64,000 nt of DNA from Malacoraja senta (lineage: Eukaryota), in assembly GCA_038087875.1 (NCBI GenBank), contig CM075993.1, forward strand, positions 11,596,001 to 11,660,000. Reading direction: 5' to 3'. This document shows positions 3,646 through 61,061 of the stretch, piece by piece (positions within the stretch are counted from its first letter, which is position 1; each line of letters starts with the position of its first letter). The notes under the pieces are model-generated. The model did not search any database. It was not told the origin of the DNA and saw nothing but the letters and a program-made list of their open reading frames with translations. The position numbers and the translations under genes are program-made.

Positions 3646-3848
3646 CTTATTCAAACAAGAGATGGACACAAAAAGCTGGAGTAACTCAGCGGGTCAGACG
3701 GCATCTCCGGAGAAAAGGAATAGGCGACGCTTCGGGTCGAGACTCATTTTTCAGCGATGCTGCATGACCCGCTGAGCTACTCCAGCTTTTTGTGCCTGTC
3801 TTCGGTGTAAACCACCATCTGCAGTTCCTTCCTACACTTATTCAAACA
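3646..3848. mobile_element. Fold-back Penelope pLTR mini-element with 12 bp TSD
   Basis: Inverted copies of the pLTR tail and a partial hammerhead on the minus strand. CTTATTCAAACA at 3646-3657 and 3837-3848. Confidence 0.7.
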
Positions 3849-8092: not shown

Positions 8093-8675
8093 AGCTGGAG
8101 AAACTCAGCGGGTGAGGCAGCATCTATGGAGCGAAGGAATAGGCGACGTTTCGGGTCGAGACCCTTCTTCAGGCTGATGTCGGGGGGGGGCGGGAAAAAG
8201 AAAGGAAGAGGCGGAGACAGTGGGCTGTGGGAGAACTGGGAAGGGGAGGGGGAGGAGAAAGAAAGCAAGGACTACATTAAATTGTAGGTCAATGTTCATA
8301 CCGCTGGGGTGTAAACTACCCAAGCGAAATATGAGGTGCTGTTCCTCCAATTTGCGGTGGGACTCACTCTGGCCATGGAGGAGGTCCAGGACAGAGAGGT
8401 CAGATTTGGAATGGGAGAGGGAGTTAAAGTGCTGAGCCACCGGGAGATCAGGTTGGTTCTTGTGAACTGAGTGGAGGTGTTTGCAAAGCGATCGCCAAGC
8501 CTGCGCTTGGTCTCACTGATGTAGAGCAGTTGACACCTGGAACAGCGGATGCAATAGATGAGGTTGGAGGAGGTGCACGCGAACTTCTGCCTCACCTGGA
8601 AAGACTGCTTGGGTCCTTGGATGGAGTCGAGGGGGGAGGTAAAGCGACAAGTGAAGCATTTCCTGCGGTTGCAAG
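8093..8675 (-). mobile_element. Penelope-like element 3' fragment (GIY-YIG region plus hammerhead-bearing 3' end), frameshifted
   Basis: CNRRKCFTC...NLIYCIRCSRCQLLYISETKRRLGDRF, then AQHFNS...RKLEEQHLIFRLGSLHPSGMN in another frame. Confidence 0.9.
8145..8172 (-). ncRNA. Minimal type I hammerhead ribozyme motif
   Basis: Minus strand reads CTGAAGA-A-GGGT(CTCG)ACCC-GAAAC-GTC; core intact. Confidence 0.7.
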
Positions 8676-10269
8676 AAATTCTCAGAAAGGGCATACAGAC
8701 TGCAGTTCCGCAAAGAAGCAATTAGGTACTTAAGAGCACACTGAAAATCTAAATCTCCTGTCCTTCTCCTGCATCACCTAATCAGTGACAATCGACGGGA
8801 GGACTCCCTCGTTTGTACATCTCTGCTTCCTTCTAGTCAGAAAGAGAGAACTACTCAGGCACTTAAGCAAGGTGTCATCATCACTTAAGCAAGGTGTCGT
8901 CTTCGAAAAAAGCCTTCCTCTGTAGGGCACCCAAATTTATTACGAGAGACATGTTCCCTGCAAAGCCGAAAGACAACACTGTTGTGGCAACAGGATTATT
9001 GGTTTACCCAAGATGCAGCGGGTGATTGACAAAGAAACAAGCTGCTGAACACACCGCATGAGGAACCTGTCACTTCCATCCACAGGAAAGATTAATGCTT
9101 GCTAAATGTGCTAACCCACTGTGATGCTCAGCTGGGGATTCTGCACAAGATCTCAGATCATCAGTGAACAGTGATGTGTAATCACTGTATATAATATATT
9201 GGACTCTTTAAAATACATGTCACAGTCAATAAAATACATTTTATTATTATAACATTATGAAATATGAGCAGACTTGATTTTAGAAGTTGTAGTTCTTATA
9301 CCTTCTCTTGTCGCATCCCTACCTGGTTCTGGCTTACGTTGCCATTTATATAAATACCATGGAGTTACCCATTGTTTGGTCTGTCCGCAAGATCGTATTT
9401 CCCAATTGGCTTTACTGCATCATATATGAATCACATTTTTGGCAAATTACAGCATAAAATTCAATCTTAACAGAGAGCTGAAGGAGTATTGTGTAACATG
9501 AAACATGCTGTTGTGCAAGATCAAACTGATTATAACAGAAGCAGCCTGATGTTGCCCCATGAAATTAGATATCTGTGATTTTACGCTTTGCATAAGGTTT
9601 TCCTGTGGTGAAATAAAAACATTATACAAATATTACTCCGGATTTTTGTCTCGTGGAGTTCTTGGGAGTTCTGTATTTAGAAGACATAGCTACATTTAAA
9701 TTAGTATTTTGCATTTTCTTTAAGAAATGGAAAGTTTAAGTGTGTGATCCTGATATGACTTTTCAAGTTGATATGCAAGGGGACAAATCACATAAATTTT
9801 AGAATTGAAGTGTTTATGTGATTTTTTTTAGGCTGTATGGAACTCTGTCACACAGAACAGAAAATTCAGAACTTAATGAGTTAGAGTTGACTAGGCTCAC
9901 AGTGGGGAAGGGAGCATTGCGACTTATTTTGTATTCCTGCCCATTATTTTTTGACAAGACATCCTAGACTGCAATGGTTTATATGCACAAAAACAAATGT
10001 TAAAACATCACTGCACTTGAGATTATGCAGGTTTTATGCAATCTCACAGTGAAGTATTTTCTAGAACATTTGGAGTGCATTGAATTATGTGAATTGACAT
10101 CCGCGATCTTCTGCATAATTGTATAAAGTGTAATGAAATTTCTAAAGATATTGATCCCCACAAAAAGCTATAGTTTCCAATGGCACCAACACGCTGAGGG
10201 GTAGTGCTTATTTGGAACAACTTTTTCTCTTAGATCATAATTCATATTTCTTACAACATACAAGGAGGA

Positions 10270-17624: not shown

Positions 17625-17867
17625 GGCTTGTTGGGGAGCACTTCTGGTCCAGTGATCACAATACCATTAGTTTCAATATAATTATGGAGAGGGTCAGAAC
17701 TGGACCTAGGGTTGAGATTTTTGATTGGAGAAAGGCTAACTTTGAGGAGATGCGAAAGGATTTAAAAGGAGTGAATTGGGACGTGTTGTTTTATGGGAAG
17801 GATGTAGAAGAGAAATGGAGGACATTTAAAGGTGAAATTTTAAGAGTACAGAATCTTTATGTCCCTG
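17625..17867 (+). pseudogene. CR1 ORF2 fragment (end of endonuclease region), interrupted by the Penelope element
   Basis: GEHFWSSDHNTISFNI...FDWRKANFEEMRKDL. Confidence 0.85.
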
Positions 17868-17933
17868 GTACACAAAAAAATGCTGGAGAAACTCAGCGGG
17901 TGCAGCAGCATCTATGGAGCGAAGGAAATAGGT

Positions 17934-17961
17934 AACGTTTCGGGCCGAAACCCTTCTTCAG
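17934..17961 (-). ncRNA. Minimal type I hammerhead ribozyme motif in the Penelope 3' pLTR
   Basis: CTGAAGA-A-GGGT(TTCG)GCCC-GAAAC-GTT on the element's sense strand, about 115 nt after the stop codon. Confidence 0.72.
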
Positions 17962-18077
17962 ACTGATAGGGGGTGGGGAGAAGAAAGGAAAAAAGGAAAA
18001 GGAGGAGGAGGAGCCCGAGGGTTGGGGGAGGGGAGGAGACAACCAGATGGCTGATGAAGGGGAGGGGACAGCCAGGG

Positions 18078-20537
18078 CTAGCAGAATTGGGAGAATTCAA
18101 CGTTCAGGCCACCAGGGTGTAGACTGCCCAAGCGGAATATGAGGTGCATTTCCTCCAATTTACGGTGTTGCTCGCTGTGGCCATGGAGGAGACCCAGGAC
18201 AGAGAGGTCAGATACGGAATGGGAGGGGGAGTTGAAGTGCTGAGCCACCGGGAGTTCAGGTTGGTTATTGCGGACCGACCGGAGGTGTTCGGCGAAACGA
18301 TCGCCAAGCCTCCGCTTGGTCTCACCGATGTAGATCAGCTGGCATCTAGAGCAGCGAATGCAATAGATGAGGTTGGAGGAGATGCAGGTGAACCTCTGTC
18401 GCACCTGGAACGACTGCTTGGGTCCTGGAATGGAGTGGAGGGGGGAAGTGAAGGGACAAGTGTTGCATCTCTTGCGGTTGCAAGGGAAAGTACCAGGGGA
18501 GGGGGTGGTATGGGAGGGAAGGGAAGAATTGACAAGGGAGTTACGGAGGGAGCGGTCTTTGCGGAAGGCAGACATAGGGGGAGATGGGAAGATGTGGCGA
18601 GTGGTGGGGTCACGTTGGAGGTGGCGAAACTGACGGAGGATCACTTGTTGTATGTGACGGCTGGTGGGGTGAAAGGTGAGGACTAGGGGGACTCTGCCTT
18701 TGTTGTGAGTGGGGGGATGGGGAGAGAGAGCAGTGTTGCGGGGTATGGCAGAGACCCTGGTGCGAGCCTCATCTATGGTGGAGGAGGGGAACCCCCGTTC
18801 CCTGAAGAATGAGGACATTTCAGATGCCCTGGTGTGGAACGCCTCATCCTGGGAGCAGATGCGGCGTAGACGGAGGAATTGGGAGTGGGGGATGGAGTCC
18901 TTACAGGAAGCAGGGTGGGAAGAAGTGTAGTCCAGATAGCCATGGGAGTCGGTAGGTTTGTAGTGGATGTCGGTAAGGAGTCTATCACCTGCGATGGAGA
19001 TAGTGAGGTCAAGGAATGGTAGGGAAGTGTCGGAAATGGTCCAGGTGTATTTAAGTGCCGGATGGAAGTTGGTGGTGAAGCGGATGAAGTCAGTCAGTTG
19101 TGTGTGGGTGCAGGATGTGGCACCAAAACAATCATCGATGTAGCGGAGGTAGAGGTCGGGGATGGGGCCCTGGTACGCATTGAACAGGGATTGTTCTACG
19201 TACCCGACAAAGAGGCAGGCGTAGCTGGGGCCCATGCGTGTGCCCATAGCTACGCCTTGTATTTGGAGGAAATGGGAGGAGTCGAATGAAAAGTTATTAA
19301 GTGTAAGTACCAGCTCCGCTAGGCGGAGGAGGGTGTCAGTGGCCGGGTATAGATTGCTTCTACGGTCGAGGAAAAAACGGAGGGCTTTGAGACCATCCTG
19401 GTGGGGGATGGAGGTGTACAGTGACTGGACGTCCATGGTGAAGATGAGGGGGTGAGGGCCTAGAGAGTGGAATGCGCGGAGATGACGGAGAGTGTCTGAG
19501 GTGTCTTGAACATAGGTGGGGAGGGATTTAACCAAGGGGGATAGTATGGAGTCGAGGTAGGTGGAGATGAGTTCGGTGGGGCACGAACAGGCAGAGACAA
19601 TGGGTCTACCGGGACAGTCAGGTTTGTGGATTTTGGGGAGAAGGTAAAAGCGGGCTGTGCGGGGCTGGGGAACGATGAGGTTGGAGGCTCGTTCGGGCAG
19701 GGCGTGGGAGTGGATGAAGTTGGTGATGGTGCTGGAGATGGTGGCCTGGTGCTCGTCAGTGGGGTCATGGTCCAGGGGTAAGTAGGAAGAGGTGTCCGAG
19801 AGTTGGCGCGTGGCCTCAGCTTTGTAGAGGTCGACGCGCCAGACTACCACGGCACCTCCCTTGTCGGCGGGTTTGATAACCCAATCTAGGTTGTTGCGGA
19901 GTGAGTCGATGGCAGTGCGTTCAAGGGGGGAGAGATTGGAGTGAGACAGGGGAGTGGAGAAGTTGAGGCGGTGGATGTCACGGCGGCAGTTTTTAATAAA
20001 GAGTTCTAAAGCCGGAAGGCTGCGAGGGGGGTTCCATGAGGATGGGGTGCGTTGGAGACTGGAAAAGGGGTCATCAGTGGGGAGCGAGGACTGCTTCCCA
20101 TGGAAGTGAGCTGTGAGGCGGAGGCGACGGTAGAAGCGTTCCAAGTCATGGAGGGCACGGAACTCATTGAGATGGGGACGGAGGGGGACAAAGGTAAGAC
20201 CTCTGCTGAGGACAGACCGTTCGATGTCGGAGAGGGGGAGGTCGGGGGGGATGGTGAACACCCGGCAGGGATGGGGGTTGGGGCCGGAGGAAGGCAGGTG
20301 GGTGTAATGGGGACGAGGCGATGTGTGGTGGGGGGGTGGTGGGTGGTCAGGGGGTGGGGGGGTGAGAGGGCAGTGGTGTGGGTGTGGAAGAGAAGTGGTC
20401 CCATAGTTGGAGAGGGATGGGGAAGAATCAGTGGAACTGCCACTGAGATAACCAGGGCTAGGCAGACTAGCGCTAGGACCCAGTGGAGTCAAACCCCGGA
20501 GAGTGGGAGTGAACAGCGTGGAGGCTTCAGGCCCAGC
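18078..20537 (-). CDS. Penelope-like reverse transcriptase with C-terminal GIY-YIG endonuclease (5'-truncated, no native ATG)
   Basis: RT motifs IKPADKGG, YLLPKIHK, GRPIVS, MDVQSLYTSIP, GVAMG, YLRYIDD, LPFLD. Cys linker CNRKRCNTC. NLIYCIRCSRCQLIYIGETKRRLGDRFAEH. The frame is open upstream of the TTG at 20492 up to the junction. Confidence 0.93.
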   Translation of the reverse strand, partial: AGPEASTLFTPTLRGLTPLGPSASLPSPGYLSGSSTDSSPSLSNYGTTSLPHPHHCPLTPPPPDHPPPPHHTSPRPHYTHLPSSGPNPHPCRVFTIPPDLPLSDIERSVLSRGLTFVPLRPHLNEFRALHDLERFYRRLRLTAHFHGKQSSLPTDDPFSSLQRTPSSWNPPRSLPALELFIKNCRRDIHRLNFSTPLSHSNLSPLERTAIDSLRNNLDWVIKPADKGGAVVVWRVDLYKAEATRQLSDTSSYLPLDHDPTDEHQATISSTITNFIHSHALPERASNLIVPQPRTARFYLLPKIHKPDCPGRPIVSACSCPTELISTYLDSILSPLVKSLPTYVQDTSDTLRHLRAFHSLGPHPLIFTMDVQSLYTSIPHQDGLKALRFFLDRRSNLYPATDTLLRLAELVLTLNNFSFDSSHFLQIQGVAMGTRMGPSYACLFVGYVEQSLFNAYQGPIPDLYLRYIDDCFGATSCTHTQLTDFIRFTTNFHPALKYTWTISDTSLPFLDLTISIAGDRLLTDIHYKPTDSHGYLDYTSSHPASCKDSIPHSQFLRLRRICSQDEAFHTRASEMSSFFRERGFPSSTIDEARTRVSAIPRNTALSPHPPTHNKGRVPLVLTFHPTSRHIQQVILRQFRHLQRDPTTRHIFPSPPMSAFRKDRSLRNSLVNSSLPSHTTPSPGTFPCNRKRCNTCPFTSPLHSIPGPKQSFQVRQRFTCISSNLIYCIRCSRCQLIYIGETKRRLGDRFAEHLRSVRNNQPELPVAQHFNSPSHSVSDLSVLGLLHGHSEQHRKLEEMHLIFRLGSLHPGGLNVEFSQFC

Positions 20538-20591
20538 TAAACTAAACTAAAACTACTTTAAACTAAAGAGGAATGTGCTTCCAGCAGGGAG

Positions 20592-20928
20592 CTGCGGTTA
20601 CTGCTGGAACTGCAGATGCTGGAAAATCGAAGGTAGACAAAAGTGCTGGAGAAACTCAGCGGGTGCAGCTGCACCCACTGAGTTTCTCCAGCACTTTTGT
20701 CTACCTTCGAATTTCCAGCATCAGCAGTTCCTTCTTAAACACTTTGTCTACTCCACTGCGAAATCTCCTCAAGGTATGCCTACTTTGAAGAAGTTCTCCT
20801 CCTCCCTCCGAAGACAGATTTCTGAAGAAGGGTTTCTGCCCGAAACGTTACCTATTTCCTTCGCTCCATAGATGCTGCTGCACCCGCTGAGTTTCTCCAA
20901 CACTTTTGTCTACCTGCGGTTACTGCTG
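20592..20928 (+). mobile_element. 307 bp non-autonomous Penelope derivative with 15 bp TSD, 5' fold-back, tandem pLTR tail and hammerhead
   Basis: CTGCGGTTACTGCTG at 20592-20606 and 20914-20928. Hammerhead core at 20822-20849. Confidence 0.8.
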
Positions 20929-21780: not shown

Positions 21781-24264
21781 GAAAAGTTACAAAAGACTCC
21801 CGAATTAAATGGAAGGAAATTTCAAGAAGGGATAAGAGAATAAGGTCAGGGCCAATTGCGAGCGGTGCGAGAGGGGAGGTGAATACCGAGGTCAAAGTGT
21901 TGTATGTGAATGCGCGAACTATAAGAAATAAAGTGGACGAGCTTGAGGCTCAGTTTGAAATTGGCAAGTATGATATTGTAGAAATTACTGAGACATGGCT
22001 GCAAGAGGGCCAGGGCTGGGAACTGAATATTCAATCTTATAAATCCTATCGAAAAGACAGGCAGGTGGGCAGAGGGGGTGGGGTAGCTCTGTTCGTGAGG
22101 AATGAAATTCAGTCCCTTAAAAGGGGTGACATTGAAACAAGAGATGTGGAGTCAGTATGGATAGAACTAAGGAATTGTAAGGGTAAAAAGACCCTAATGG
22201 GACTAATCTACAGGCCCCCAAACAGTAGCCTGGATATAGGGTGCAAGTTGAATCAGGAGTTAAAATTGGCATGTAGTAAAGGTAATGGTATGGTTGTTAT
22301 GGGAGATTTCAACATGCAGGTAGACTGGGAAAATTAGGTTGGTACTGGACCCCAAGAAAGGGACTTTGTGGAGTGCCTCTGTGATGGATTCTTAGAGCAC
22401 CTTCTATTGGAGCCTACCAGGGTGAAGGCAATTCTGGATTTAGTGTTATGTAATGAACCGGATTTGATAAAGGAACTTGATGTTAATGAGCCATTAGGAG
22501 GTAGTGACCATAATATGGTCAAGTTAATTGGAAACTTAATTGGAGAGGGAGAAGGGTAGATCGGAGGTGTCAGTGTTACAGTTGAATAAAGGGGACTATG
22601 GAGACATGAGGGAGGAGCTGGCCAAAATTGACTGGAAAGATACCCTAGCAGGGATGACAGTGGAACAACAATGGCAGGTATTTCTGGGAATAATACAGAA
22701 GGTGCAGGATCAGTTAATTCCAAAGAGGAAGAAACATTCCAAGGGCAGTAAGGGGCGACCACGGCTGACAAGGGACGTCAGGGACAGTATAAAAATAAAA
22801 GAGAAGAAGTACAACTTTGCAAAGATGAGCGGGAAGCAAGAGGATTGGGTAATGTTTAAAGAACAACAGAAGATAACTAAAAAGACAATACGGGGAGAAA
22901 AGATGAGGTACGTAGGTAAGCTAGCCAAGAATATAAAGCAGGATAGTAAAAGCTTCTTTAGGTATGTGAAGAGAAAAAATTAGTTAAGACCAAAGTTGGA
23001 CCCTTGAAGACCGAAAATGGTGAATTTATTATGGGGAACAAGGAAATGGCAGATGAGCTGAACAGGTACTTTGGATCTGTCTTCACTAAGGAAGACACAA
23101 ACAATCTTCCTGATATAGTAGTGGCCAGAGGATCTGGGGTGACAGAGGAACTGAAGGAAATCCACATTAGGCAGGAAATGGTGTTGGGTAGACTGATGGG
23201 ACTGAAGGCTGATAAATCCCCAGGGCCTGATGGTCTGCATCCCAAGGTACTTAAGGAAGTGCCTCTAGAAATCATGGACGCATTGGTGATAATTTCCCAA
23301 TGTTCTATAAATTCAGGATCAGTTCCTGTGGATTGGAGGGTAGCTAATGTTATCCCACTTTTTAAGAAAGGCGGTAGAGAGAAAACAGGGAATTATAGAC
23401 CAGTCAGCCTGACATCGGTGGTGGGGAAGATGCTGGAGTCAATTATAAATGATGAAATAGGGACACATTTGGATAGCAGTAACAGGATCGGTCGGAGTCA
23501 GCATGGATTTACGAAGGGGAAATCATGCTTAACTAATCTTCTGGAATTTTTGTGGATGTAACTAGGAAAATGGACAAGGGAGAGCGAGTGGATGTAGTGT
23601 ACCTGGACTCTCAAAAAGCATTTGATAAGGTCCCACATAGGAGATTAGTGGGAAAAATTAGGGCACATGGTATTGGGGGTAGTGCTGACATGGATAGAAA
23701 ATTGGTAGGCAGACAGGAAACAAAGAGTAGGGATTAACATTTCAGAATGGCAGGCAGTGACTAGTGGGGTACCGCAAGGCTCGGTGCTGGGACCGCAGCT
23801 ATTTACAATATACATCAATGATTTAGATGAATGGATTCAAAGTAACATTAGCAAATTTGTAGATGACACAAAGCTGGGTGGCAGTGTGAACTGTGAGGAG
23901 GATGCTATGAGAATGCAGGGTGCCTTGGACAGGTTGGGTGACTTGGACAGGATGCAGTTTAATGTGGATAAATGTGAGGTTATCCACTTTGGTAGCAAAA
24001 ACAGGAAGGCAGATTATTATCTAAATGGTGTCAAGTTGGGAAAAGGGGACGTACAACAGGATGTGGGGGTCCTTGTTCATCAGTCAATGAAAGTAAGCTT
24101 GCAGGTACAGCAGGCAGTGAAGAAAGCAAATGGTAGGTTGGCCTTCATAACAAGAGGAGTTGAGTATAGGAGCAAAGAGGTTCTTCTGCAGTTGTATAGG
24201 GCCCTAGTGAGACCACACCTGGAGTATTGTGTGCAGTTTTGGTCTCCAAATTTGAGGAAGGATA
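21781..24264 (+). pseudogene. CR1 LINE ORF2 (APE endonuclease + RT) with stops and frameshifts; 3' end cut by a Helitron-like sequence
   Basis: [58 protein letters not shown]. Confidence 0.93.
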
Positions 24265-25020
24265 TCTATATAACTAAAAGTCTCATCTTGACCACTTCCT
24301 GTCTGCACTGTATATTGATTTTAGAAACAACGCTACTATATATCGCTATGATTTTGGCCATCTTATTCACAGTCCTCCTCCACTGAGGCAGCCCCGAGGA
24401 TTTTTCCGATCGATGAAAAATAAAAAAGTTATGAATGTTTAAAGAATCTTGAGATTAGCTGATTGGTCCTCTCGCCTGTCAATCATCATGATAAATGTAA
24501 CGCCCCTTCCGGGGGGCCACGAGTATAAAGCCCCGGAGGCTGGACGTGAGTCCGACACCCTGGAAAACTGTGAGTGAGAGTTGAGCCCAGAACTGTGAGC
24601 CGTGAAATGAAATGAATTGGTAGCCTGCACTCTGCTTGAAATGGTATGAAGTTAATTTGATAGCCTGCACTCTGCTTGTAATGGTATGAAATGAATTTGG
24701 TGGCCTGCACTCTGCTTGAAATGGTATGAAATGAATTTGAGTTTGGTGGCCTGCACTCTGCTTGAAATGGTATGAATGTATTTGAATTTGGTGGCCTGCA
24801 CTCTGCTTGAAATGGAATAAAATTGAATGTGAATTTGGTGGCCTGCACTCTGCTTGAAATGGAATGAAATTGAATTTGAATTTGGTGGCCTGCACTCTGC
24901 TTGAAATGGAATGAAATGAATTTGAATTTGGTGGCCTGCACTCTGCTTGAAATGCTATGAAATGAATTTGAATTTGGTGGCCTGCACTCTGCTTGAAATG
25001 GAATGAAATTGAATTTTCCC
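24265..25020 (+). mobile_element. Helitron-like non-autonomous element, 5' part
   Basis: Starts TCTATATAACTAAAAG right after an A, at a position where other CR1 copies read A^T. Contains an internal minisatellite. No 3' CTRR end found. Confidence 0.55.
24603..25015 (+). repeat. Minisatellite, 9 units of ~40-47 bp
   Basis: Constant core GCCTGCACTCTGCTTG(A)AATG separated by variable GAAAT/GAATTT linkers. Confidence 0.92.
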
Positions 25021-25765
25021 AACTCAACCCCTTTCCACCCTGCGCAGAGACCATTCTCGCTGCAACTCCCTGGTTAACTTATCCCTTCCCACCCAAACTA
25101 CCCCCTCCCCAGGTACCTTCCCCTGTCCCTATACATCCTCCCTCGACTCTGTCCAGGGACCCCGACAGTCCTTTCAGGTTAGGCAGATGTACACTTGCAC
25201 CTCCTCCAACCTCATCTACTGTATCTGTAGTTCAAGATGTGGACTCGTACATCGGCGAGACCAAACGTAGACTGGGCGATCGTTTCGCAGAACACCTTCG
25301 CTCAGCCCCTGAACCTACCTGATCTCCCAGTTGCTAAACATTTTCATTCTCCTTCCCATTCCCACACTGATCTTTCTGCCCTAGGTCTCCTCCATTGCCA
25401 GTGAGGCTAAATGCAAATTGAAGGAATAGCATCTCATATTTTGCTTGGGCAGCTTACAGCCCAGTGGTATGAATATGGATTTCTCTAACTTCAGGTAGCC
25501 CCGGCATTCCCTCTCTCTCTATCCCTCCCCCATCCCCCTAGCTTCTTATTTTCACCCTACAAACATCTTACAATGGCCTGTTTCCTTTATCATCGTTACT
25601 TTTGCATATCTTTCATTCATTGTTCTTTATCTCTCTACATCATCGTCTATATCTCTTGTTTCCCTTATCCCTAACCAGTCTGAAGAAGGTTCTTGACCCG
25701 AAACATCACCCATTATTTTTCTCCAGAGATGCTGCCTGTTCCACTGAGTTACTCCAGCTTTTTGA
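25021..25765 (+). mobile_element. Penelope-like 3' fragment (degenerate GIY-YIG plus mutated hammerhead at 25680-25707)
   Basis: YIGETKRRLGDRFAEHLRS; CTGAAGAAGGTTCTTGACCCGAAACATC. Confidence 0.85.
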
Positions 25766-26010
25766 GTCTGTCTGTATGGAGTTAGTTAATTTTCCCTGTG
25801 ATCATGTGGGTTTTCTCCAGGTGCTCCGGTTCCCTCCCAAACTCCAAAGACGTATAGGTTTGTAGGCTAATTGGGTTGGTACAATTGTAATTTGTAAATT
25901 GTCCCTAGGTGTGTAGGATAGTGCTAGTGTACGAGGATTGCTGGTCGGTGTGGACTCGGTGGGCCAAAGGGCCTGTTTCTGTGTTGTATCTCTAAACTAA
26001 ATTAACTAAA
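25766..26010 (+). mobile_element. HE1 SINE, 5'-truncated
   Basis: Central domain, GGGCCAAAGGGCCTGTTTCT tail and (CTAAA)n. Confidence 0.85.
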
Positions 26011-26769
26011 AATAATGTCTCAGAAAGTAGGCAATCTGATTCCTATAATACCTCTATTATATCCTGCTGTGTGTCACATGACGTCCTTGTTTGGTGCAGG
26101 GATTAATCCTGAAGAGAACACAAAGTGCTGGAGTGACTCGGCAGGTCAGGCAGCATCTCCGGAGAACATGGATAATGACGTTAAGGGTCGGGGCCCTTCT
26201 TCACACTGATTGTAGTGGGGGAGAGGAAAGCTGGGAGAGAGGAGGGGCAGGACAAAATGTGGCAGGTGATAGATCAACACAGGCGAGGGGGGGAGGGTGA
26301 CAGGCAAATGGTTGGAACAAAGGCCAGTGATAAGAACAGCAGGTGTAAGACAGGTTTGAATATCGTATTGTGAAACCTGGGGGAGGAAAGTAGTGGGGAG
26401 GAGGGGGGGGGGGTGTGGGTGTGGAAAGTAATGGGGGGGGGTAAGGTAGGGTGTGTGGGGGAGGGAAGTAGTGGTGAGGTGGGAGGGGCGGTTAGTGGAG
26501 GGTAAAAATAGGTGGGAGTCTAGGTTAAAGCTAATCCACTAAAGTTGCACATCCTGAAAACTCTACAGAAAGACAAGTCTCCATCTTTCAATTTACTATT
26601 TCACCCGCTGATAATTGTCAGTGCCCATATCTGACGCTACCTCGGTTCACTACCCCCTTTAGTTGTGAAGCTTCTTCATTCAGACTAGAACTTTTATAGT
26701 CGTTGCAGTTGGATCGCATCCCAAGGAGATTTATTCCCTCTGGGACGATATTTGTTTTGAATGACTAAA

Positions 26770-26972
26770 TATTTACAGTAGACAAAAATGCTGGAGAAAC
26801 TCAGCGGGTGAGGCAGCATCTATGGAGAGAAGGAATAGGTGACGTTTCGGACCCGAAACGTCACCTATTCCTTCGCTCCATAGATGCTGCCTCACCCGCT
26901 GAGTTTCTCCAGCATTTTTGTCTACCTTCGATTTTTCCAGCATCTGCAGTTCCTTCTTAATTATTAACAGTA
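26770..26972. mobile_element. Near-perfect 73 bp-arm palindrome built from the Penelope pLTR, with 11 bp TSD
   Basis: Arms 26778-26850 and 26853-26925 (one mismatch). TAT(T/T)(T/A)ACAGTA flanks: TATTTACAGTA at 26770-26780 and TATTAACAGTA at 26962-26972. Confidence 0.85.
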
Positions 26973-27020
26973 AATGGACTGTTCGTTTTCCAATGAATAT
27001 TAGTCAGCTTGCCCCCCACG

Positions 27021-27202
27021 CCTATTTGTGTAGAAAGGAACTGCAGATGCTGGTTTAAACCGAAGATAGATACAAAACCCTGGAGTAACTCAGCGGGACA
27101 GGCAGCATCTCTGGAGAGAAGGAATGGGTGACGTTTCAGGTCAAGACCCTTCTTCAGACCTGTCCCGCTGATTACTCCAGCTTTTTGTCTATACCTATTT
27201 GT
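27021..27202 (-). mobile_element. Fold-back hammerhead mini-element with 9 bp TSD
   Basis: CCTATTTGT at 27021-27029 and 27194-27202. Mutated core at ~27130-27157. Confidence 0.75.
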
Positions 27203-27794
27203 TTGTTATATTTAAATTAAAATCTCATATTCTGTACATAATTATATTGGGCACCACTTAAACGTAAAGATGTAGTACCTGATGAGATTTCCCTGAAGGC
27301 ACCTCGAATATAAAACGACCACCTATCTCTATGGCTTTGCGCCGATTAGATCCCAAATAGATTGTAACCTGGCTGCTTCTTTTATATATAGAACGGTCTA
27401 TTTATGCATTTGTCATTTTATAAATATTTCAAGCTTTCAAATACGTGGCTTTAAGTTGATCTTTAGCTGTTTGTTCCCAAGTTGACGTTGTGAAGATGGG
27501 TCGATGGACAATGGTACTTTATTGTCAGGTACAAATGCACAGTGAAATTCTTTTCTTACTTACAGTCCAGCAAAGTATTGCCAGACCTGAGCACCATCCC
27601 CGATTAGCAAAGTCTTCAGAAATAGTCCACTGAGATCGCATGGAAGAGGCACCATGTTTTGGCACCATTTTGGCCATCGAGCGATGCTCGAACCAACCAG
27701 ACAGCAATGCTCAACTACTTCTCCCTCTTTGGTGAACCCGCAGACTATCCTTGATCGGACTTCGCTGGCTTTACCTTGCACTAAACGTTAGTTA

Positions 27795-27973
27795 TTCCCT
27801 TATCATGTGTAGGAAGGAACTGCAGATGCTGGTTTCAATCGAAGGTGGACACAACATGCGATGCTGTCTCAGCGGGACAGGCTACACCTCTGGAGCATCC
27901 CATTCCTTCTCTCCGGAGATGCTGCCTGTCCTGCTGAGTTATTTTGTGTCCATCTTCGATTCCCTCATCATGT
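27795..27973. mobile_element. Fold-back pLTR mini-element (core deleted) with 14 bp TSD
   Basis: TTCCCT(T/C)ATCATGT at 27795-27808 and 27960-27973, with inverted tail copies between them. Confidence 0.65.
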
Positions 27974-28709
27974 ATCTGTACACTGTAAATGGTTCTATTG
28001 TAATCATGTATTATCTTTCCACTGACTGGATAGCACGCAACAAGAGCTTTTCACTGTACCTCGGTACACGTGACAATAAACTAAACTGAACAAGAGACTA
28101 CGCGGTCTATACCAAATCTTCCCTGTATTTACCATGGATAAGGACATGCAAGTAACTAAGGTCAGGGGATGGAACAGTGACACTATGGAGCATGCCAACT
28201 TTACAAAGGAGGGGGCCTGGGAGGTCCTGAAACACATCAAGGGTGACTTCCCAGGGGCCTGACCAAATATCTCCAAGGATGTCATGGGAAACAAGAGAAA
28301 GCTTTCTGACTGTCTTGCAGAGATATCCATCTTTAATAGTTACTGGTGAGGTACTGGAATATTGGCGGGTGGCCGATGTTGTATCTTTATTCAAGAAGGG
28401 CAAGAAGGACAAGTCAGGGAACTACAGGCTGAGCCTAACATCAGAAGTGGAAGTGATATTGGAAGTTCTTCTGAGACACAGGGATTTACCTATATTTTAA
28501 AAGGCAAAGACTGATGGGAGATGGTCAGCATGGCTCTGTGCATGGGAAATCATTTCTCACAAATTGGTGTTTTTTGAAATGGTGACCAAATGGATTTCCA
28601 AAGGCAGAGCAATGGACTCTGATTCAGTGATTCAATGATTCTTTATTGTCACATGTACCGAGGTACTGAGACATTCTTTGTTTTGCATCCAATACACAAG
28701 TACACAAGT

Positions 28710-29995
28710 TCTGGAATTTTTTGAGGATGTGACAAGTAAAATGGATGAAGGGGTGCCAGTGGATGTAGTGTATCTAGACTTTCAGAAAGCCTTTGATAAG
28801 GTCCCGCACGGGAGACTGGTGACTAAAATTAGAGCACATGGTATTGGGGGTAGGGTGTTGACGTGGATAGAAAATTGGTTGGCAGACCGGAAGCAAAGAG
28901 TAGGAGTGAACAGGTCCTTTTCAGAATGGCAGGCAGTGGCGAGTGGAGTGCCGCAAGGCTCGGTGTTGGGGCCGCAACTGTTTACCATATATATTAATGA
29001 TTTGGAAGAGGGAATTAGGAGCAACACTAGCAAGTTTGCGGATGACACAAAGCTGGGTGGCAGTGTGAACTGTGAAGATGATGTTAGGAGTTTGCAAGGT
29101 GACCTGGACGGATTGAGTGAGTGGGCAGATGCGTGGCAGATGCAGTATAATATAGATAAATGTGAGGTTATCCATTTTGGCGGCAAAAACAAGGGGGCAG
29201 ATTATTATCTCAATGGGGTTAGGTTAGGTAAGGGGGAGGTACAGCGAGACCTGGGTGTCCTTGTACACCGTTCACTGAAAGTTGGCGTGCAGGTACAGCA
29301 GGCAGTGAAGAAAGCTAATGGAATGTTGGCCTTCATAACAAGAGGATTTCAGTATAGGAGTAAAGAGGTTCTTCTGCAGTTGTATAGGGCTCTGGTGAGA
29401 CCACATCTGGAGTATTGTGTACAGTTTTGGTCTCCTAATTTGAGGAAGGACATCCTTGTGATTGAAGCAGTGCAGCGTAGGTTCACGAGATTGATCCCTG
29501 GTATGGCGGGACTGTCATATGAGGAAAGATTGAAAAGACTAGGCTTGTATTCACTGGAGTTTAGAAGGATGAGGGAGGATCTTATAGAAACATATAAAAT
29601 TATAAAAGGACTGGACAAGCTAGATGTAGGAAATATGTTCCCAATGTTGGGCAAGTCCAGAACCAGGGGCCACAGTCTTAGAATAAAAGGGAGGTCATTT
29701 AAGACTGAGGTGAGAAAAAACATTTTCACCCAAAAAAAAAAAAAGAAAAAACATTTTCACCCAGAGATTGTGAATTTATGGAATTCCCTGCCACAGAGGG
29801 CAGTGGAGGATAAAATCACTGGATGGGTTTAAGAGAGAGTTAGATAGAGCTCTAGGGGCTAGTGGAGTCAAGGGATATGGGGAGAAGGCAGGCACGGGTT
29901 ATTGATAGGGGACGATCAGCCATGATCACAATGAATGGTGGTGCTGGCTCGAAGGGCTGAATGGCCTCCTCCTGCACCTATTTTCTATGTTTCTA
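28710..29995 (+). mobile_element. Young 5'-truncated CR1 LINE (RT C-terminal half to 3' tail)
   Basis: [41 protein letters not shown]. Tail TTTTCTATGTTTCTA. Frame broken only by the poly(A) insert at ~29733. Confidence 0.95.
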
Positions 29996-31169: not shown

Positions 31170-31525
31170 CAACATTTTAGCTCCCCCTCCCATTTGCACA
31201 CTGACCTTTCTGTCCTGCACTGTCAGAGTGAGGCCCAGTGCAAATTGGAGGAACAGCTCCTCATCTTTCACTTAGGCAGCTTACACCCCAGCGGTATGAA
31301 CATTGACTTCTCTAACTTCAAGTAGTCCTTGCTTTCCCTCTCTCTCCATTCCCTCCCCCTTCTCTGTTCTCCCACCAGTCTAACTTTCTCCGACGACATT
31401 CTATCTCTGTCCCGCCCCCTCCCCTGACATCAGTCTGAAGAAGGATCTCAACCCGAAACGTCACCTATTCCATCTCTCCAGAGATGCTGCCTGTCCCGCT
31501 GAGTTACTCCAGGACTTTATGTCCC
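31170..31525 (+). mobile_element. Penelope-like 3' fragment with mutated hammerhead (31435-31462)
   Basis: Homologous to the ORF end (KLEEQ...GSLHPSGMNIDFSNF) and the pLTR. Confidence 0.8.
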
Positions 31526-31929
31526 TCCATTACCTGCATGTATTTGTGCCGATACAAAGTGCTTTTCAATGCTGGGGAGCTTGCACGGAGCTTGGCTACT
31601 GAAAAGTTCTTGGTTCAATCGAAAGTGAACGAAATTCTGAGCTCATTACTGCACTGCTGTGTCTTCAACTCTTCAAAAGAGACAAACATTTGCGGGAGAT
31701 TGTTGGTCTTGGAACAGAGCAGGTAACGCATCTTTCCCGAGTGGAGATTGACACAAAACTCAGCGGGACAGGCAGCATCTCTGGAGAGGAATGGGTGACG
31801 TTTCAGGTCGAGACCCTTCTTTAGCTCAGTTTCCAGAGTGGATATTGATTGCATTGTCCTAAAGCAAATGCCTCTCTCTTTCAATGCAGCTCACACCACC
31901 AATGTTCTGGGATGTATTTTTTCATTAAT

Positions 31930-34555: not shown

Positions 34556-35493
34556 CTGTCTAGGTGGGGAGAAAGTTTGTTGGCTGTGCAAAGTTAACTT
34601 ACACTGTAAATGTGATTCATAATCACACATTGAAGGAAATGCGATCACTTAAAAAAAAACATGACAAAGGGAACGTTCTACAAACATTCCTTCCCAACTT
34701 CAGATACAACAAGATTTTCGGTTTCCTCCCAAACTCCAAAGACATACAAGTTTGTAGCTTAATTGGCTTGGTATAAATATTAAAAAATGTCCCTTGTGTG
34801 TGTAGGGTGGTGTTAATGTGTGGGGATTGCTGGACGGCACGGACTCGGTGGGCCGAAGGGCCTGTGTCCGCGCTGTATCTAAACTAAACTAAAAATGGCG
34901 AGGTTTGTAAAGATAATTCCACTCAAAGGCTGTTTTTCTGGAGCCTGTGAGGAATGAGTGTGCCAGTGACAGGTGCCTGCACAGATCTCTCTGCTCCTAA
35001 TTACCAACCCGTAGCGTGGAGCTGGGCTCTAAATCTCCAGAACAGACACTCTGAGAACCCTCGCCTTTGTGGTACCTTTCGCGTGGTTTATTTTTACACA
35101 GCCCTCTTCTGCTCATTCTTCAACTGCCTTTATCGAGCACTGTTGGTTGGCTTCAGTCATGACACAAGATAAATGAGCTCTGGGTCCTCGGGGCCTAGGT
35201 ATGGCTGCCAGCCGTTTCCAAAATAGCAAACTATTTTTCATAGAGCGATGCGATGTGAAATTAGATGCAGCAGGCAAGCTAACATTTACTATCACAGGTA
35301 GTGCAGTGGGAATACATTTAGTTTCCTTCTGTGTCAAAGTAACTTCTCTGAATTTACATAAAGACTGTGTTCAGCGCAAGTTCTTATTGTGAAAATCGTG
35401 GAACAAAGTTTGAATCTAAGTGAACTTTACAGCTTGTTAACCCCTCCTGGTTCTCAGGTAAGATTCTGAAGCCAGTCTATTTCTCCATCCCCA

Positions 35494-35770
35494 GATAGAC
35501 ACACAATGCTGGAGTAACTCAGCAGGTCAGGCAGCATTTCTGGAGGAAAGGAATAGGTGATGTTTCGGGTCGAGACCCTTCTTCAGACTGGTGTCTGAAG
35601 AAGTCCCCAGACTCCAGTCTCCAAAGAAGACTTCTAGTCTGAAGAAGGGTCTTGACCGAAAACGTCACCTATTCCTTTTCCCCAGAGATGCTGTCTGTCC
35701 TGCTGAGTTACTCCAGTTTTTTGCGTCTGTCTTTGGTGTAAACCAGCATCTGCAGTTCCTTCCTACACAT
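35494..35770. mobile_element. Head-to-head pair of hammerhead/pLTR units
   Basis: Minus core at 35559-35586 and plus core at 35639-35666, each followed by the pLTR tail. Confidence 0.75.
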
Positions 35771-36054
35771 AGTTCTTAACCCTGGTCTCCCACCCAGAGC
35801 CATTCAACCTGTTCCCAGTTTGAGCTCCTTTCATCGTGCTTTGTATTAGCTTGTGATTCTGGCATCTATGTGAACCGTTCTACTTCTCCTTATCATCATC
35901 TGCTCTGATCTGCCGCTTTCGCACCTTACCCTTCCATATCTCTAGACTCCCTCTCCCCTGACTCTCAGTCTGTAGAAGGGTCTCGACCTGAAACGTCACC
36001 CATTCCTTCTCTCCAGAGATGCTGCCTGTCCCGCTGAGTTACTCCAGCGTTTTA

Positions 36055-42709: not shown

Positions 42710-45700
42710 GTTATTTAAGAAGGAACTGCAGATGCTGGATAATCGAAGGTAGACAAAAACGCTGGAGAAACTCAGAGGGTGAGGCAGCATCTATGGAGAG
42801 AAGACGTTTCGGGTCGAGACCCTTCTTCAGACTGATGTGGGGGTGGGGGGGGCGGGAAGAAGAAAGGAAGAGGCATAGACAGTGGGCTGTGGAAGAGCTG
42901 GGAAGGGGAGGGGAAAGAAGGAGAAAGCAGGGACTACCTGAAATTGGAGAAGTCAATGTTCATACCGCTGGGGTGTAAACTACCCAAGCGAAATATGAGG
43001 TGTTGCACCTCCAATTTATGGTGGGCCTCATTATGGCCATGGAGGAGGCCGAGGACAGAAAGGTCAGATTCGGAATGGGAGGGGGAGTTGAAGTGCTGAG
43101 CCACCGGGAGATCAGGTTGGTTATTATGAACCGAGCGAAGGTGTTGGGCAAAGCGATCGCCAAGCCTGCGCTTGGTCTCACCGATGTAGAGCAGCTGACA
43201 TCTAGAGCAGCGTATGTAATAGATGAGGATGGAGGAGATGCAGGTGAACCTCTGCCGCACCTGGAAAGACTGCTTGGGTCCTTGAATGGAGTCAAGGGGG
43301 GAGGTAAAGCGAAAAGTGTAGTATTTCCTGCGGTTGCAAGGGAAAGTGCCAGGAGAGGGGGTGGTTTGGGTGGGAAGGGACAAATAGACCAGGGAGTTAT
43401 GGAGGGAACGGTCTCTGTGGAAAGCCGAAGATGTAAAGAGGAGATGGGAAGATGTGGCAAGTGGTGGGGTCACGTTGCAGGTGGCGAAAATGGCGGAGGA
43501 TTATTTGTTGTATGTGGCGGCTGGTGGGTTGGAAGGTGAGGACAAGGGGGATGGGAAGTGAGAGCAGAGTTACGGGGTATAGAATAGACCCTGGTGAGAG
43601 CCTCATCTATAGTAGAAGAGGCGAACCACCGTCCCCTAAATAATGAGGACATCTCTGATGCCCTGGTTTGGAACACCTCATCCTGGGTACAGATGCAGCG
43701 TAAACGGAGGAATTGGAAATAGGGGCTGGAGTCCTTACAGGAAGCAGGGTGGGAAGAAGTGTAGTCCAGATAGCCATGGGAGTGAGTGGGATTCTAGTAG
43801 ATGTCGGTCAGTAGTCTATCACCTGCGTTAGAGATAATGAGGTCCAGAAACGGTAAGGTGATGTCGGAAATGGTCCAGGTGTATTTGAGTGCCGGATGGA
43901 AGTTAATGGAGGTGAAATGGATGAAGTCAGTGAGTTCTGTATGGGTGCAGGAGGTCCTTTTCACAATGGCAGGCCGTGACCAGTGGGGTACCACAAGGCT
44001 CAGTGCTGGGACCCCAGCTATTTACAATATATATTAATGATTTGGACGAGGGAATTGAATGCAACATCTCCAAGTTTGCGGATGACACAAAGCTGGGGGG
44101 CAGTGTTAGCTGTGAGGAGGGTGCTTGGAGGCTGCAAGGTGACTTGGATAGGCTGGGTGAGTGGGCAAATGCGTGGCAGATGCAGTATAATGTGGATAAA
44201 TGTGAGGTTATCCACTTTGGTGGCAAAAACAGGAAAGTAGACTATTATCTGAATGGTGGCCGATTAGGAAAAGGGGAGATGCAACGAGACCTGGGTGTCA
44301 TGGTACACCAGTCATTGAAAGTAGGCATGCAGGTGCAGCAGGCAGTGAAGAAAGCGAATGGTATGTTAGCATTCATAGCAAAAGGATTTGAGTATAGGAG
44401 CAGGGAGGTTCTACTGCAGTTGTACATGGTCTTGGTGAGACCACACCTGGAGTATTGCGTACAGTTTTGGTCTCCTACTCTGAGGAAGGACATTGTTGCC
44501 ATAGAGGGAGTACAGAGAAGGTTCACCAGACTGATTCCTGGGATGTCAGGACTTTCATATGAAGAAAGGCTGGATAGACTCGGCTTGTACTCGCTAGAAT
44601 TTAGAAGATTGAGGGGGGATCTTATAGAAACTTACAAAATTCTTAAGGGGTTGGACAGGCTAGATGCAGGAAGATTGTTCCTGATGTTGGGGAAGTTCAG
44701 AACAAGGGGTCACAGTTTAAGGATAAGGGGGAAATCTTTTAGGACCGAGATGAGAAAAACATTTTTCACACAGAGAGTGGTGAATCTCTGGAATTCTCTG
44801 GCACAGAATGTAGTTGAGGCCAGTTCATTGGCTATATTTAAGAGGGAGTTAGATGTGGCCCTTGTGGCTAAAGGGATCAGGGGGTATGGAGAGAAGGCAG
44901 GTACAGGATACTGAGTTAGATGATCAGCCATGATCATATTGAATGGCGGTGCAGGCTCGAAGGGCCAAATGGCCTACTCCTGCACCTATTTTCTATGTTT
45001 CTATGTTTCTATGTAGCACCAATGCAATTGTCGATGTAGCGGAGGTAGAGTTGGGGGATAACCATATAACCATATATAACCATATAACCATAACAGCACG
45101 GAAACAGGCCATCTCGGCCCTTCAAGTCCGTGCCGAACATTTTTTGTTCCACTCTACGTCTCGAACAAAGATTGTTCGACGTACCCTACAAAGAGGCAGG
45201 CATAGCTTGGGCCCATGCGCGTGCCCATAGCTACGCCTTTTATTTGGAGGAAATGGGAGGTCAAACGAAAAGTTGTTAAAGATAAGGACCAGCTCCACTA
45301 GGTAGAGGAGAGTATCAGTAGATGGGGATTGGTTGGTTCTCCGGTCGAGGAAGAAACGGAGGGCTTTAAGACCCTCCTGGTGGGGGATGGAGGTTTAGAG
45401 TGAAGATGGTGGGAATGGGGGGGGCCTGGAAAACGGAAGTCATGGAGGAGACGAAGAGCGTGTGAGGTGTCTTGAACATAGGTAGGGAGGGATTTAACCA
45501 GGATGGAGTCGAGGTATGTGGAAATAGGTTCGGTAGGACACGAACAGGCAGAAACAATGGGTCTACCAGGACAGTCAGGTTTGCAGATTTTGGGGAGAAG
45601 GTAAAATCGGGCCGTGCGGGGCTGGGGAACGATGAGGTTGGAGGCTCGGGAGGACAGGGAGCCGGAGTTAATGAAGTCAGTGATGGTGCTAGAGATGGTG

Positions 45701-45755
45701 GCCTGGTGCTCGTCTGTGGGGTCATGGTCCAAGGATAAGTAGGATTTTCCAAGAA
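42710..45755 (-). mobile_element. Second Penelope-like copy (degenerate, 5'-truncated) with 13 bp TSD and two nested inserts
   Basis: TTAATGAGGAAGA at 42697-42709 and 45756-45768. RT and GIY-YIG fragments collinear with the 18-20 kb copy. Intact hammerhead core at 42803-42830. Confidence 0.9.
43953..45014 (+). mobile_element. Young 5'-truncated CR1 LINE nested in Penelope
   Basis: Uninterrupted 312-aa ORF2 C-terminus ([15 protein letters not shown]); (TTCTATGT)n tail. Confidence 0.95.
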
Positions 45756-45875
45756 TTAATGAGGAAGAAGTATTTCTGCCAATTCAAATAGACTGAGGTC
45801 TGTGGATGAGGAAGTCGATGACCCAATTGCAGAGGGATGCTCCGAGACCCAGTTCCGTGAGCTTGGTAATCAGTT

Positions 45876-47125: not shown

Positions 47126-47283
47126 AAACACTGTGGTGTTGTCTGAAGAAGGGGATCGGCCCAAAACGTTGCCTATTTCCTTCGTTGCATAGATGCTGCC
47201 TCACCCGCTGAGTTTCTCCAGCACTTTTGTCTACCTTCGACTTTCCAGCATCTGCAGTTCCTTCTTAAACACTGTGGTGTTGT
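47126..47283 (+). mobile_element. Hammerhead-only mini-insertion with 17 bp TSD
   Basis: AAACACTGTGGTGTTGT at 47126-47142 and 47267-47283. Insert starts at CTGAAGA (47143); core mutated. Confidence 0.8.
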
Positions 47284-47899: not shown

Positions 47900-49538
47900 A
47901 GAAACATAGAAACATAGAAACGTAGAAAATAGGTGCAGGAGTAGGCCATTCGGCCCTTCGAGCCTGCACCGCCATTCAATATGATCATGGCTGATCATCC
48001 AACTCAGTATCCCGTACCTGCCTTCTCTCCATACCCCCTGATCCCTTTAGCCACAAGGGCCACATCTAACTTAAATATAGCCAATGAACTGGCCTCGACT
48101 ACCCTCTGTGGCAGAGAGTTCCAGAGATTCACCACTCTCTGTGTGAAAAAAGTTCTTCTCATCTCGGTTTTAAAGGATTTCCCCCTTATCCTTAAGCTGT
48201 GACCCCTTGTCCTGGACTTCCCCAACATCGGGAGCAATCTTCCTGCATCTAGCCTGTCCAACCCCTTAAGAATTTTGTAAGTTTCTATAAGATCCCCTCT
48301 CAATCTCCTAAATTCTAGAGAGTATAAACCAAGTCTATCCAGTCTTTCTTCATATGAAAGTCCTGACATCCCAGGAATCAGTCTGGTGAACCTTCTCTGC
48401 ACTCCCTCTATGGCTATAATGTCCTTCCTCAGATTTGGAGACCAAAATTGTACGCAATACTCCAGGTGTGGTCTCACCAAGACCCTGTACAACTGCAGTA
48501 GAACCTCCCTGCTCCTATACTCAAATCCTCTTGCTATGAAGGCCAACATACCATTCGCTTTCTTCACTGCCTGCTGCACCTGCATGCCTACTTTCAATGA
48601 CTGGTGTACCATGACACCCAGGTCTCGCTGCACCTCCCCATTTCCTAATCGGCCACCATTTAGATAATAGTCTGCCTTCCCGTTTTGCCACCAAAGTGGA
48701 TAACCTCACATTTATCCACATCATACTGCATCTGCCAAACATTTGCCCACTCACCCCGCCTATCCAAGTCACCTTGCAGTCTCCTAGCATCCTCCTCACA
48801 GCTAACACTGCCCCCCAGCTTAGTGTCATCCGCAAACTTGGAGATGTTGCTTTCAATTCCCTCGTCCAGATCATTAATATAAATTGTAAATAGCTGGGGT
48901 CCCAGCACTGAGCCTTGCGGTACCCCACTAGTCACTGCCTGCCATTGTGAAAAGGACCCGTTTACTCCTACTCTTTGCTTCCTGTTTGCCAGCCAGTTCT
49001 CTATCCACATCAATACTGAACCCCCAATACCGTGTGATTTAAATTTGTATCCTAATCTCTTATGTGGTACCTTGTCGAAAGCCTTCTGAAAGTCCAGATA
49101 CACCACATCCACTGGTTCTCCCCTATCCACTCTACTAGTTACATCCTCGAAAAATTCTATAAGATTCGTCAGACACGATTTACCTTTCGTAAATCCATGC
49201 TGACTTTGTCCAATGATTTCACCACTTTCCAAATGTGCTGCTATCCCATCTTTAATAACTGACTCTAGCAGTTTCCCCACTACCGATGTTAGACTAACTG
49301 GTCTGTCATTCCCCGTTTCCTCTCTCCCTCCCTTCTTAAAAAGTGGGGTTACGTTTGCTACCCTCCAATCCTCAGGAACTACTCCAGAATCTAAAGAATT
49401 TTGAAAAATTATCACTAATGCATCCACTATTTCTGGAGCTACTTCCTTAAGTACTCTGGGATGCAGCCTATCTGGCCCTGGTGATTTATCGGCCTTTAAT
49501 CCATTCAATTTACCCAACACCACTTCCCGACTAACCTG
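47900..49538 (-). mobile_element. Young 5'-truncated CR1 LINE (RT domain), nested in an older plus-strand HER1-like LINE (~47465-47899 / 49539-49860)
   Basis: [31 protein letters not shown]. Host rejoins as GAGGAGTGAT|CTTATAGAG. Confidence 0.93.
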
Positions 49539-49959
49539 GATCTTATAGAGTTGTATAAAATCATGAGAGGAATAGATCGGGTAGTTGCACAGAGTCTCTT
49601 GCTCAGAGTACCAGAGGACATAGTTTTAGGTGAAGGGGGAAAGATTTAATACAAATCTGAGAGGTAACCGTTTCATGCATAGGGTGGTGAGTGTATGTTA
49701 TGAGCTGCGAGATGAAGTCGTTGAGGCAGGGACTATCCCAACGTTTAAGAAACATTTAGACAGGTACATGGATAGGACAGGTATAGAGGGATGTGGGCCA
49801 AATGCGGGCAGGTGGGACATGTGTACGTGAGACATGTTGGCCGGCGTGGGCAAGTTGGCATATAAGGGATTGTGGGGAGGGGGGGTGGGGGTAGGGAGGG
49901 TTGATGGAACTGGATAGGAAAAGGGGGAGAGGTGAAGAAAGTAAAGGGGGAGAGAGAAA

Positions 49960-60636: not shown

Positions 60637-60699
60637 ATTCGTACGTTGGGCACAAGGACCTGTTTCAGTGCAGTATTATTCTGTGACTACCGCTGAAGC

Positions 60700-61061
<362 letters not shown>

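Follow-up and report, generated by a model that had tools for sequence, protein, structure and literature searches.

The closest described systems are Penelope-like elements (PLEs), and statements on them are given here as they appear in excerpts of the cited papers. In PMC3846280, two direct pLTRs and an adjacent inverted pLTR were described together with TSDs of 8–10 bp; one inverted pLTR carried a tail of 31 bp, and the head-to-head palindromes were interpreted as the result of self-priming. An inverted, 5′-truncated copy and a one-sided tail of 30–40 bp were regarded as typical of PLEs in PMC8557442, and the mechanism of tandem or inverted PLE insertion was called unresolved both there and in PMC11167929. 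In the latter work, carried out in vitro with a Poseidon element, the protein nicked and extended both strands, two RT start sites bracketing the tail were reported, and a dimer was predicted. De novo PLE insertions had a median length of 128 bp (PMC9977147), and heavy A-to-I editing was detected in Penelope of a lizard and in a palindromic Harbinger of a frog (PMC5625713).

In the window, that is, the whole 64-kb stretch of DNA analysed, seven units of 150–340 bases were found in which two pLTR pieces stand head to head (Table 1; the one at 26770–26972 is referred to as the focal unit). We are highly confident that they are truncated PLE insertions of known design. With a rough probability of 0.55, we propose that each unit would be an extremely 5′-truncated Neptune-type PLE insertion, consisting of two pLTR stubs placed head to head within one TSD, where both nicked strands primed RT.

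Table 1. Coordinates of the 822-aa element, the seven head-to-head units, and their parts
Feature	Position	Strand	Remarks
822-aa stop-free frame (RT, CX4CxxC linker, GIY-YIG)	18078–20546	−	N-terminus missing
Tail-less 3′ pLTR of the 822-aa element	17866–17963	−	Complete minimal hammerhead core
Unit 3646	3646–3848		TSD 12 bp, exact; arm spans +1 to ~+95 (tail-less) and +40/45 to +130 (tailed)
Unit 20592	20592–20928		15-bp exact TSD; inverted arm, direct arm, spacer, and third pLTR
Inverted tailed arm, unit 20592	20607–20668		+55 to 121; far unit end tail-less
Direct arm with tail, unit 20592	20669–20744
78-nt spacer, unit 20592			Between direct arm and third pLTR; ORF start ATG 20776
Third pLTR, unit 20592	20821–20915		209 nt after second pLTR (period 209)
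Left TSD copy, focal unit	26766–26780 (core 26770–26780)	+	Last 3 bases common with arm end
Inverted tail-less pLTR arm, focal unit	26778–26850	−	pLTR +19 to ~+92, subfamily A2
Direct pLTR arm, focal unit	26851–26925	+	From +17, includes 2-nt centre
One-sided tail, focal unit	26926–26960	+	~35 nt, stops ~4 nt before full tail end
Right TSD copy, focal unit	26958–26972	+
Unit 27021	27021–27202		TSD 9 bp, exact; arm spans −2 to +130 (long, tailed) and +56 to ~+92 (short, tail-less)
Unit 27795	27794–27973		TSD 15 bp, one mismatch; arm spans +42 to +130 (tailed) and +30 to +96 (tail-less)
Unit 35494	35493–35771		No detectable TSD; tail-less arm −3 to 94, tailed arm −2 to 130
Unit 49960	49956–50185		Weak TSD, purine-rich flanks; tail-less arm +1 to 96, tailed arm ~+3/10 to 130
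5′ ends at the hammerhead upstream edge	641, 47141, 3754, 27159, 35590, 35636, 50051

The 822-aa element and its pLTR module

The arms of the units are pieces of a module of approximately 130 nt, which also terminates an 822-aa frame (in the pLTR numbering used here, the CUGAAGA box begins at +1). Against Pfam, this frame matched RVT_1 (E 4e-6) and GIY-YIG (E 9e-4), both slightly below the cut-offs, and it had 548 homologues, the best match and several of the top named ones being shark or ray proteins, which points to a cartilaginous fish as the likely host. The CX4CxxC linker located ahead of GIY-YIG (residues 689–697) fits the CX2-5CxxC pattern, and two cysteines are found within the GIY-YIG motif. 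Based on these motifs, which do not separate Neptune from Nematis, the element appears to be a Neptune-type PLE. The 822-aa element (18078–20546) is a young copy, and further decayed pieces of this PLE family, from its 3′ part or its RT, are present at 8105–8721, 42934–43500, and 45298–45783.

The module starts with a predicted minimal type I hammerhead, the boxes, bulged base, and 4-bp stem II of which correspond to those in PMC4209133 and are kept across 17 copies. In these copies the predicted pairing held in 88% of the cells compared with 12–45% in slid controls. Covariation in the 17 copies was not above that of shuffles, Rfam returned no hammerhead family match at E up to 1, and the exact 31-letter pLTR pattern had 0 matches in metagenome contigs. 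Matches of the hairpin to Rfam miRNA families were rejected, their scores being far below gathering. Numerous 5′ ends are located at the hammerhead's upstream edge (−3 to +1), not at the predicted cleavage site (+28), and the solo copies 641 and 47141, which begin at this edge, have TSDs of 16–17 bp.

The seven head-to-head units

Among the 35 pLTR fragments of the window, seven head-to-head pairs not more than 50 nt apart and 0 tail-to-tail pairs were found, while random placement of the 35 fragments (20,000 trials) gave 0.62 head-to-head pairs on average and 5 at maximum. Tail-to-tail pLTR pairs 250–350 bp apart, located at 25678–26206 and 31433–31824, are probably independent insertions, and these could also pair as RNA.

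An end-anchored search revealed TSD-like repeats of 9–15 bp in five of the seven units (3646, 20592, 26770, 27021, and 27795), compared with a maximum of 8 in 250 random place-pairs. The duplications of 12, 15, and 9 bp that the preliminary description had assigned to units 3646, 20592, and 27021, respectively, are exact and exceed this null, whereas that of unit 27795, given there as 14 bp, is present but was measured as 15 bp with one mismatch. The flanks of unit 35494 contain no repeat above chance (48% of null) and the purine-rich flanks of unit 49960 share an 8-bp repeat (2.8% of null), in agreement with the previous view that these two lack a clear TSD. Three of the five solo pLTR copies tested have duplications of 10–17 bp, thus a second primed arm is not obligatory. 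At 47126–47283, 628–749, 27021–27202, and 26766–26972, the TSD ends overlap the element ends by 2–6 bases, which suggests that short target–template pairing aided priming.

In the focal unit, counting outward from the centre, 72 of 73 pairs match (arms 26778–26850 and 26853–26925) and the centre consists of 2 nt (26851–26852), exactly as described earlier. The RNA of the palindrome was predicted to fold into a single hairpin (−146.6 kcal/mol, z −23.8), equalled by 0 of 200 shuffles. The flanking duplication has an 11-bp core with one mismatch (26770–26780/26962–26972), as already noted in the preliminary description, and a longer form of 15 bp with two mismatches (26766–26780/26958–26972), and its termini share a few bases with those of the element. 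The tail-less arm covers pLTR +19 to 92 and the tailed one +17 to ~125. The junction shows 1-nt microhomology and lies at +16 to +20, i.e., in the loop and the 3′ strand of hammerhead stem II, so the turn had been correctly placed within this stem. The direct arm begins within stem II and the CUGAAGA box is absent; with the turn in this position, neither arm retains the first catalytic box. Consequently, the earlier term “ribozyme-bearing” does not suit the focal unit, although the complete hammerhead core pattern persists in three of the seven units. The only mismatch of the focal arms opposes two common family alleles, which 14 of the 219 possible changes (6%) would do, and it gives a weak hint at two templates, being a single case noticed post hoc. 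Homogenisation of the arms after insertion was considered and rejected, as one mismatch in 73 is not significantly fewer than the ~3–4 expected from the flank divergence of ~4–6% between organisms, which is a rough hand estimate.

The other units turn at different positions. The arms of unit 3646 are joined with ~3-nt microhomology and are not nested, 44 nt being exclusive to the tail-less arm and the tail to the other arm. The same holds for unit 27795, where 3 bases are inserted at the junction and 12 nt are exclusive to the tail-less arm, the tail again belonging to the other. The arms of unit 27021 are nested and meet with 1 nt of microhomology. In unit 35494 they are also nested, both extending to the 5′ edge of the hammerhead, and 29 of the 45 nt of its centre are covered by 6-mers of the two junction-proximal ends (mean of shuffles 2.0; 0 of 5000 as high). 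Unit 49960 is old, its arms are 76% alike, and their nesting is ambiguous. Together with the focal unit and unit 20592, nested arms thus occur in four of the seven units and non-nested ones in two. In junction patches (35591–35635 and the contig joint 26799–26882), pieces of the 5′ edge of the hammerhead occur repeatedly, which is reminiscent of templated insertions.

Unit 20592 has a more complex structure. Its nested arms match at 57 of 60 positions and are joined at 20668/20669 with a 0-nt centre and 2 nt of microhomology. A 15-residue reading from ATG 20776 aligns to residue 1 of related ORFs (score 40 versus a maximum of 36 in 200 shuffles), and the MPTL-type start found there occurs in 4 of 120 homologues; this ATG overlaps a splice-donor-like motif. 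The unit is an internally deleted element that has lost its ORF and has the usual inverted copy in front. The previous statement that the units consist of pLTR only does not apply to this one, in which the ORF start and a third pLTR are included. The segment 20669–20915 (pLTR, tail, ORF start, pLTR) resembles a retrozyme unit. The segment 20592–20928 was rejected as a 5′ pLTR belonging to the 822-aa element, since it has its own 15-bp TSD and the opposite sense.

All seven units have one tailed (30–40 nt) and one tail-less outer end, the latter being found in solo copies as well. Near-perfect arms are restricted to the focal unit and unit 20592, and those of the remaining five are 74–87% alike and unequal in length. 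Both arms share one pLTR subfamily in all seven cases, which, in a permutation over 33 copies omitting two degenerate fragments, gave P 0.008 with two classes and 0.0002 with four; the fourth class is partly defined by one pair, and the two-class test is the conservative version. The common subfamily of the two arms indicates that each unit originated from one event, and the seven units have seven different junctions, which supports the earlier proposal that they are formed anew at each insertion.

Contigs of four runs from three organisms (~200,000–400,000 records per run) were compared with the 26540–28060 region. The record totals include other repeats of this region, and joint depths were not taken as copy numbers. 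A 337-nt X1 contig extends from the left flank to position 26799 of the inverted arm with 0 differences; X1 may represent the sample from which the window was derived. The same junction is crossed by contigs of X3 (organism B, to 26831) and X5 (organism C, to 26804). Thus, the focal insertion is present in both organisms B and C and is older than their split. No empty site was found among the joints and pieces listed (15 of 4678 joints and 32 of >550,000 pieces), and none of these 32 pieces bridges the focal centre itself. An X2 contig (record 9) derived from another copy spans the centre region 26802–26928 with 14 differences and 4 gaps, and at least two further head-to-head joints with different turn points are among the joints listed. 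Among the piles listed, loose ends accumulated at the tail end 27027 (952, 714, 1099, and 1029 records in the four runs) and at 27080 (1974, 1495, 2283, and 2447 records), from where the loose letters run ~11 nt on to the tail-less end, offset by two private bases of the window copy; such ends were also seen at the hammerhead 5′ edge, 27159, in all four runs.

The preliminary description had placed such units throughout introns. This was not borne out, as no host exon was identified, none of 15 candidate frames matching a host family in Pfam. The splice-flanked 30-codon frame at 27279–27368 (− strand) was rejected as an exon, having no Pfam match and at least 5 differences in organism C. Coding-like fragments at 21783–24386, 28639–29832, 43934–44914, 48004–53336, and 57100–58996 are presumably of CR1-type LINEs, and the repetitive translations at 24479–25078 and 60600–61170 correspond to a short-period tandem array and a long dinucleotide/hexanucleotide microsatellite.

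Origin of the second arm

In the mechanism that we propose, staggered nicks 9–15 bp apart would each prime one cDNA on RNA of one source, one of them starting at the tail end (+130) and the other at the inner end (~+90 to +96). Both cDNAs would stall early, often at or within the hammerhead, and host end joining would fuse their 3′ ends. Units formed this way would be dead on arrival, and any dsRNA role would be a by-product.

The two arms of a unit are copies of one short region, and the points where either synthesis began and ended are thus preserved in each unit. Nested and non-nested arms can therefore distinguish fold-back from two-strand priming with genome data alone. In fold-back, the first cDNA serves as the template, hence the second arm has to sit wholly inside the first. 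In units 3646 and 27795 the arms are not nested, thus neither could have been copied from the other unless a deletion occurred later. The cDNA fold-back put forward in the preliminary description is weakened by these two units, while its broader wording, template switching, is still compatible. Two primers, one for each RT start site, would yield non-nested arms, fixed outer ends, head-to-head polarity, a TSD, and repair-like junctions in one step. Two-strand priming is also favoured by the combination of a tailed and a tail-less outer end in every unit, both of which recur as loose-end piles, as well as by the same-subfamily arms, the two-allele mismatch of the focal unit, and the centre of unit 35494 patched from both ends. 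A junction patched from the adjacent ends is expected of the repair of two free ends. Both-strand extension, the two start sites, and the predicted dimer, as reported in the excerpt of PMC11167929, point in the same direction. On the other hand, four units are nested and one is ambiguous, and all five can be explained by fold-back just as well. Units 3646 and 27795, the non-nested ones, are old (arms 74–76% alike) and may have lost sequence from their centres later, as palindrome centres are deletion-prone. Furthermore, the observations come from seven units of one window, no empty site was among the joints listed, and the in vitro data were obtained with Poseidon, not Neptune, inverted products not being seen there according to the excerpt (PMC11167929).

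It is possible, albeit somewhat doubtful, that the second arm arose as a snap-back of the first cDNA or by self-priming on an antisense template (PMC3846280), that the endonuclease trimmed the product at the inner site, and that the non-nested units result from later central deletions. The four nested units are consistent with this, and so are the focal arms, which are closer to each other (72/73) than either is to any other copy in the window (best 62/64). Several turns lie at short self-complementary stretches, and that of the focal unit falls in a stretch that is quasi-palindromic by nature in copies of family A, where snap-back would be favoured. Self-priming and endonuclease resolution have both been suggested in the published excerpts (PMC3846280, PMC8557442). 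However, an extra deletion is required at 3646 and 27795, and neither the 0-nt centre at 20668/20669 nor the 2-nt one at 26851 is a primary hairpin loop. In addition, the tail-less end corresponds to an in vitro RT start site in the excerpt of PMC11167929 and it is present in solo copies, too.

A palindromic non-autonomous mini-element, transcribed and retrotransposed as a unit, seems improbable. The X2 contig of another copy does span a similar centre, and non-autonomous PLE derivatives exist according to published excerpts, one being contained in unit 20592, but the seven junctions are all different and distributed over several subfamilies, and at least two more junction types were found in the contigs.

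Very little credence can be given to the assumption that the palindromes are assembly artefacts or chance neighbours of independent solo insertions. In its favour, no contig among the pieces listed bridges the focal centre, but the arms differ in sequence and length, the TSDs enclose whole units, the left junction is crossed by contigs X1, X3, and X5, and the number of head-to-head pairs is far above random expectation. An assembly artefact in particular is unlikely. The least credible candidate is a DNA-transposon MITE, which the units recall in being short, inverted-repeat, TSD-flanked, and of high copy number, since their TSDs vary between 9 and 15 bp, their termini are unequal, and their sequence is that of the pLTR of an RT + GIY-YIG element, present mostly as single-orientation copies. 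Neither the fixed termini nor the constant-length TSD by which the preliminary description had defined a true MITE was seen, and this candidate is thereby refuted. The previous classification of the units as retrotransposition products, not MITEs, is supported by the same features.

Possible consequences and comparison with known systems

In annotation, units of this kind can be mistaken for MITEs or microRNA hairpins, as illustrated by the weak, sub-gathering Rfam miRNA matches. Given their density (seven in 64 kb), they may also be a major source of self-pairing RNA. Their putative role as dsRNA substrates is plausible by analogy with the editing data in the excerpt of PMC5625713, and here relates to predicted folding. 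As a tentative generalisation, PLEs might routinely insert by twin target-primed RT, where either nicked strand would prime a cDNA of its own at one of the two start sites and the cDNAs would be fused 3′ to 3′. The variable junction, the inverted pLTR, and the one-sided tail would all be explained by this one rule. A very large set of self-pairing stubs would have remained from it in sharks and rays, which could serve to prove the rule and might feed dsRNA pathways. In the twin priming of L1, a second nick primes RT and the inversion junction carries microhomology, as here. The two L1 segments derive from largely non-overlapping parts of the RNA, whereas in the present units one common 3′ region is copied in both arms, synthesis starting at two fixed sites.

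As far as the excerpts describe them, members of the Neptune clade share with the 822-aa element the C-terminal GIY-YIG with two internal cysteines, the CX2-5CxxC linker (which occurs in Nematis, too), and the minimal type I hammerhead in the pLTR. In contrast to the Poseidon element of the anole, where the ORF start is said to overlap the hammerhead, here it lies ~30 nt past the tail. The units are similar to the dual minimal hammerheads of Schistosoma, 100–700 bp apart (PMC4209133, in a passage without TSD, tail, or junction analysis), in being opposite-strand pLTR pairs without an ORF and truncated PLEs, but most of them have lost at least one hammerhead core. Non-LTR retrozymes, as excerpted from bioRxiv 10.64898/2026.07.22.740005, are likewise short non-coding PLE derivatives with a type I hammerhead, to which the 209-nt repeat of unit 20592 is similar. 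Nevertheless, retrozymes form head-to-tail tandems with a hammerhead in each unit, while the units described here are head-to-head and the partial tandem of 20592 has only one complete hammerhead core.

A literature search, covering few subscription journals, returned no paper in which twin priming was described for PLEs or palindromes composed only of pLTRs for cartilaginous fishes. The canonical EN+ PLE unit, as outlined in the excerpts of PMC3846280 and PMC8557442, has the same inverted, 5′-truncated 5′ copy, palindromic junction, tail at one end, and heavy 5′ truncation. It differs in its TSD, published as ~8–10 bp versus 9–15 bp here, and in its size, since the arms of the present units are shorter than one pLTR plus tail, forming hairpins of 150–280 bp without an ORF, seven in 64 kb. 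Unit 20592 shows the layout given for Pen2a_Av (two direct pLTRs, one inverted, TSD) minus the ORF. Considering that the design itself has already been published, judging by the same excerpts (PMC3846280, PMC8557442), the units do not represent a new element type; they are the ordinary minimal form of the published PLE insertion architecture.
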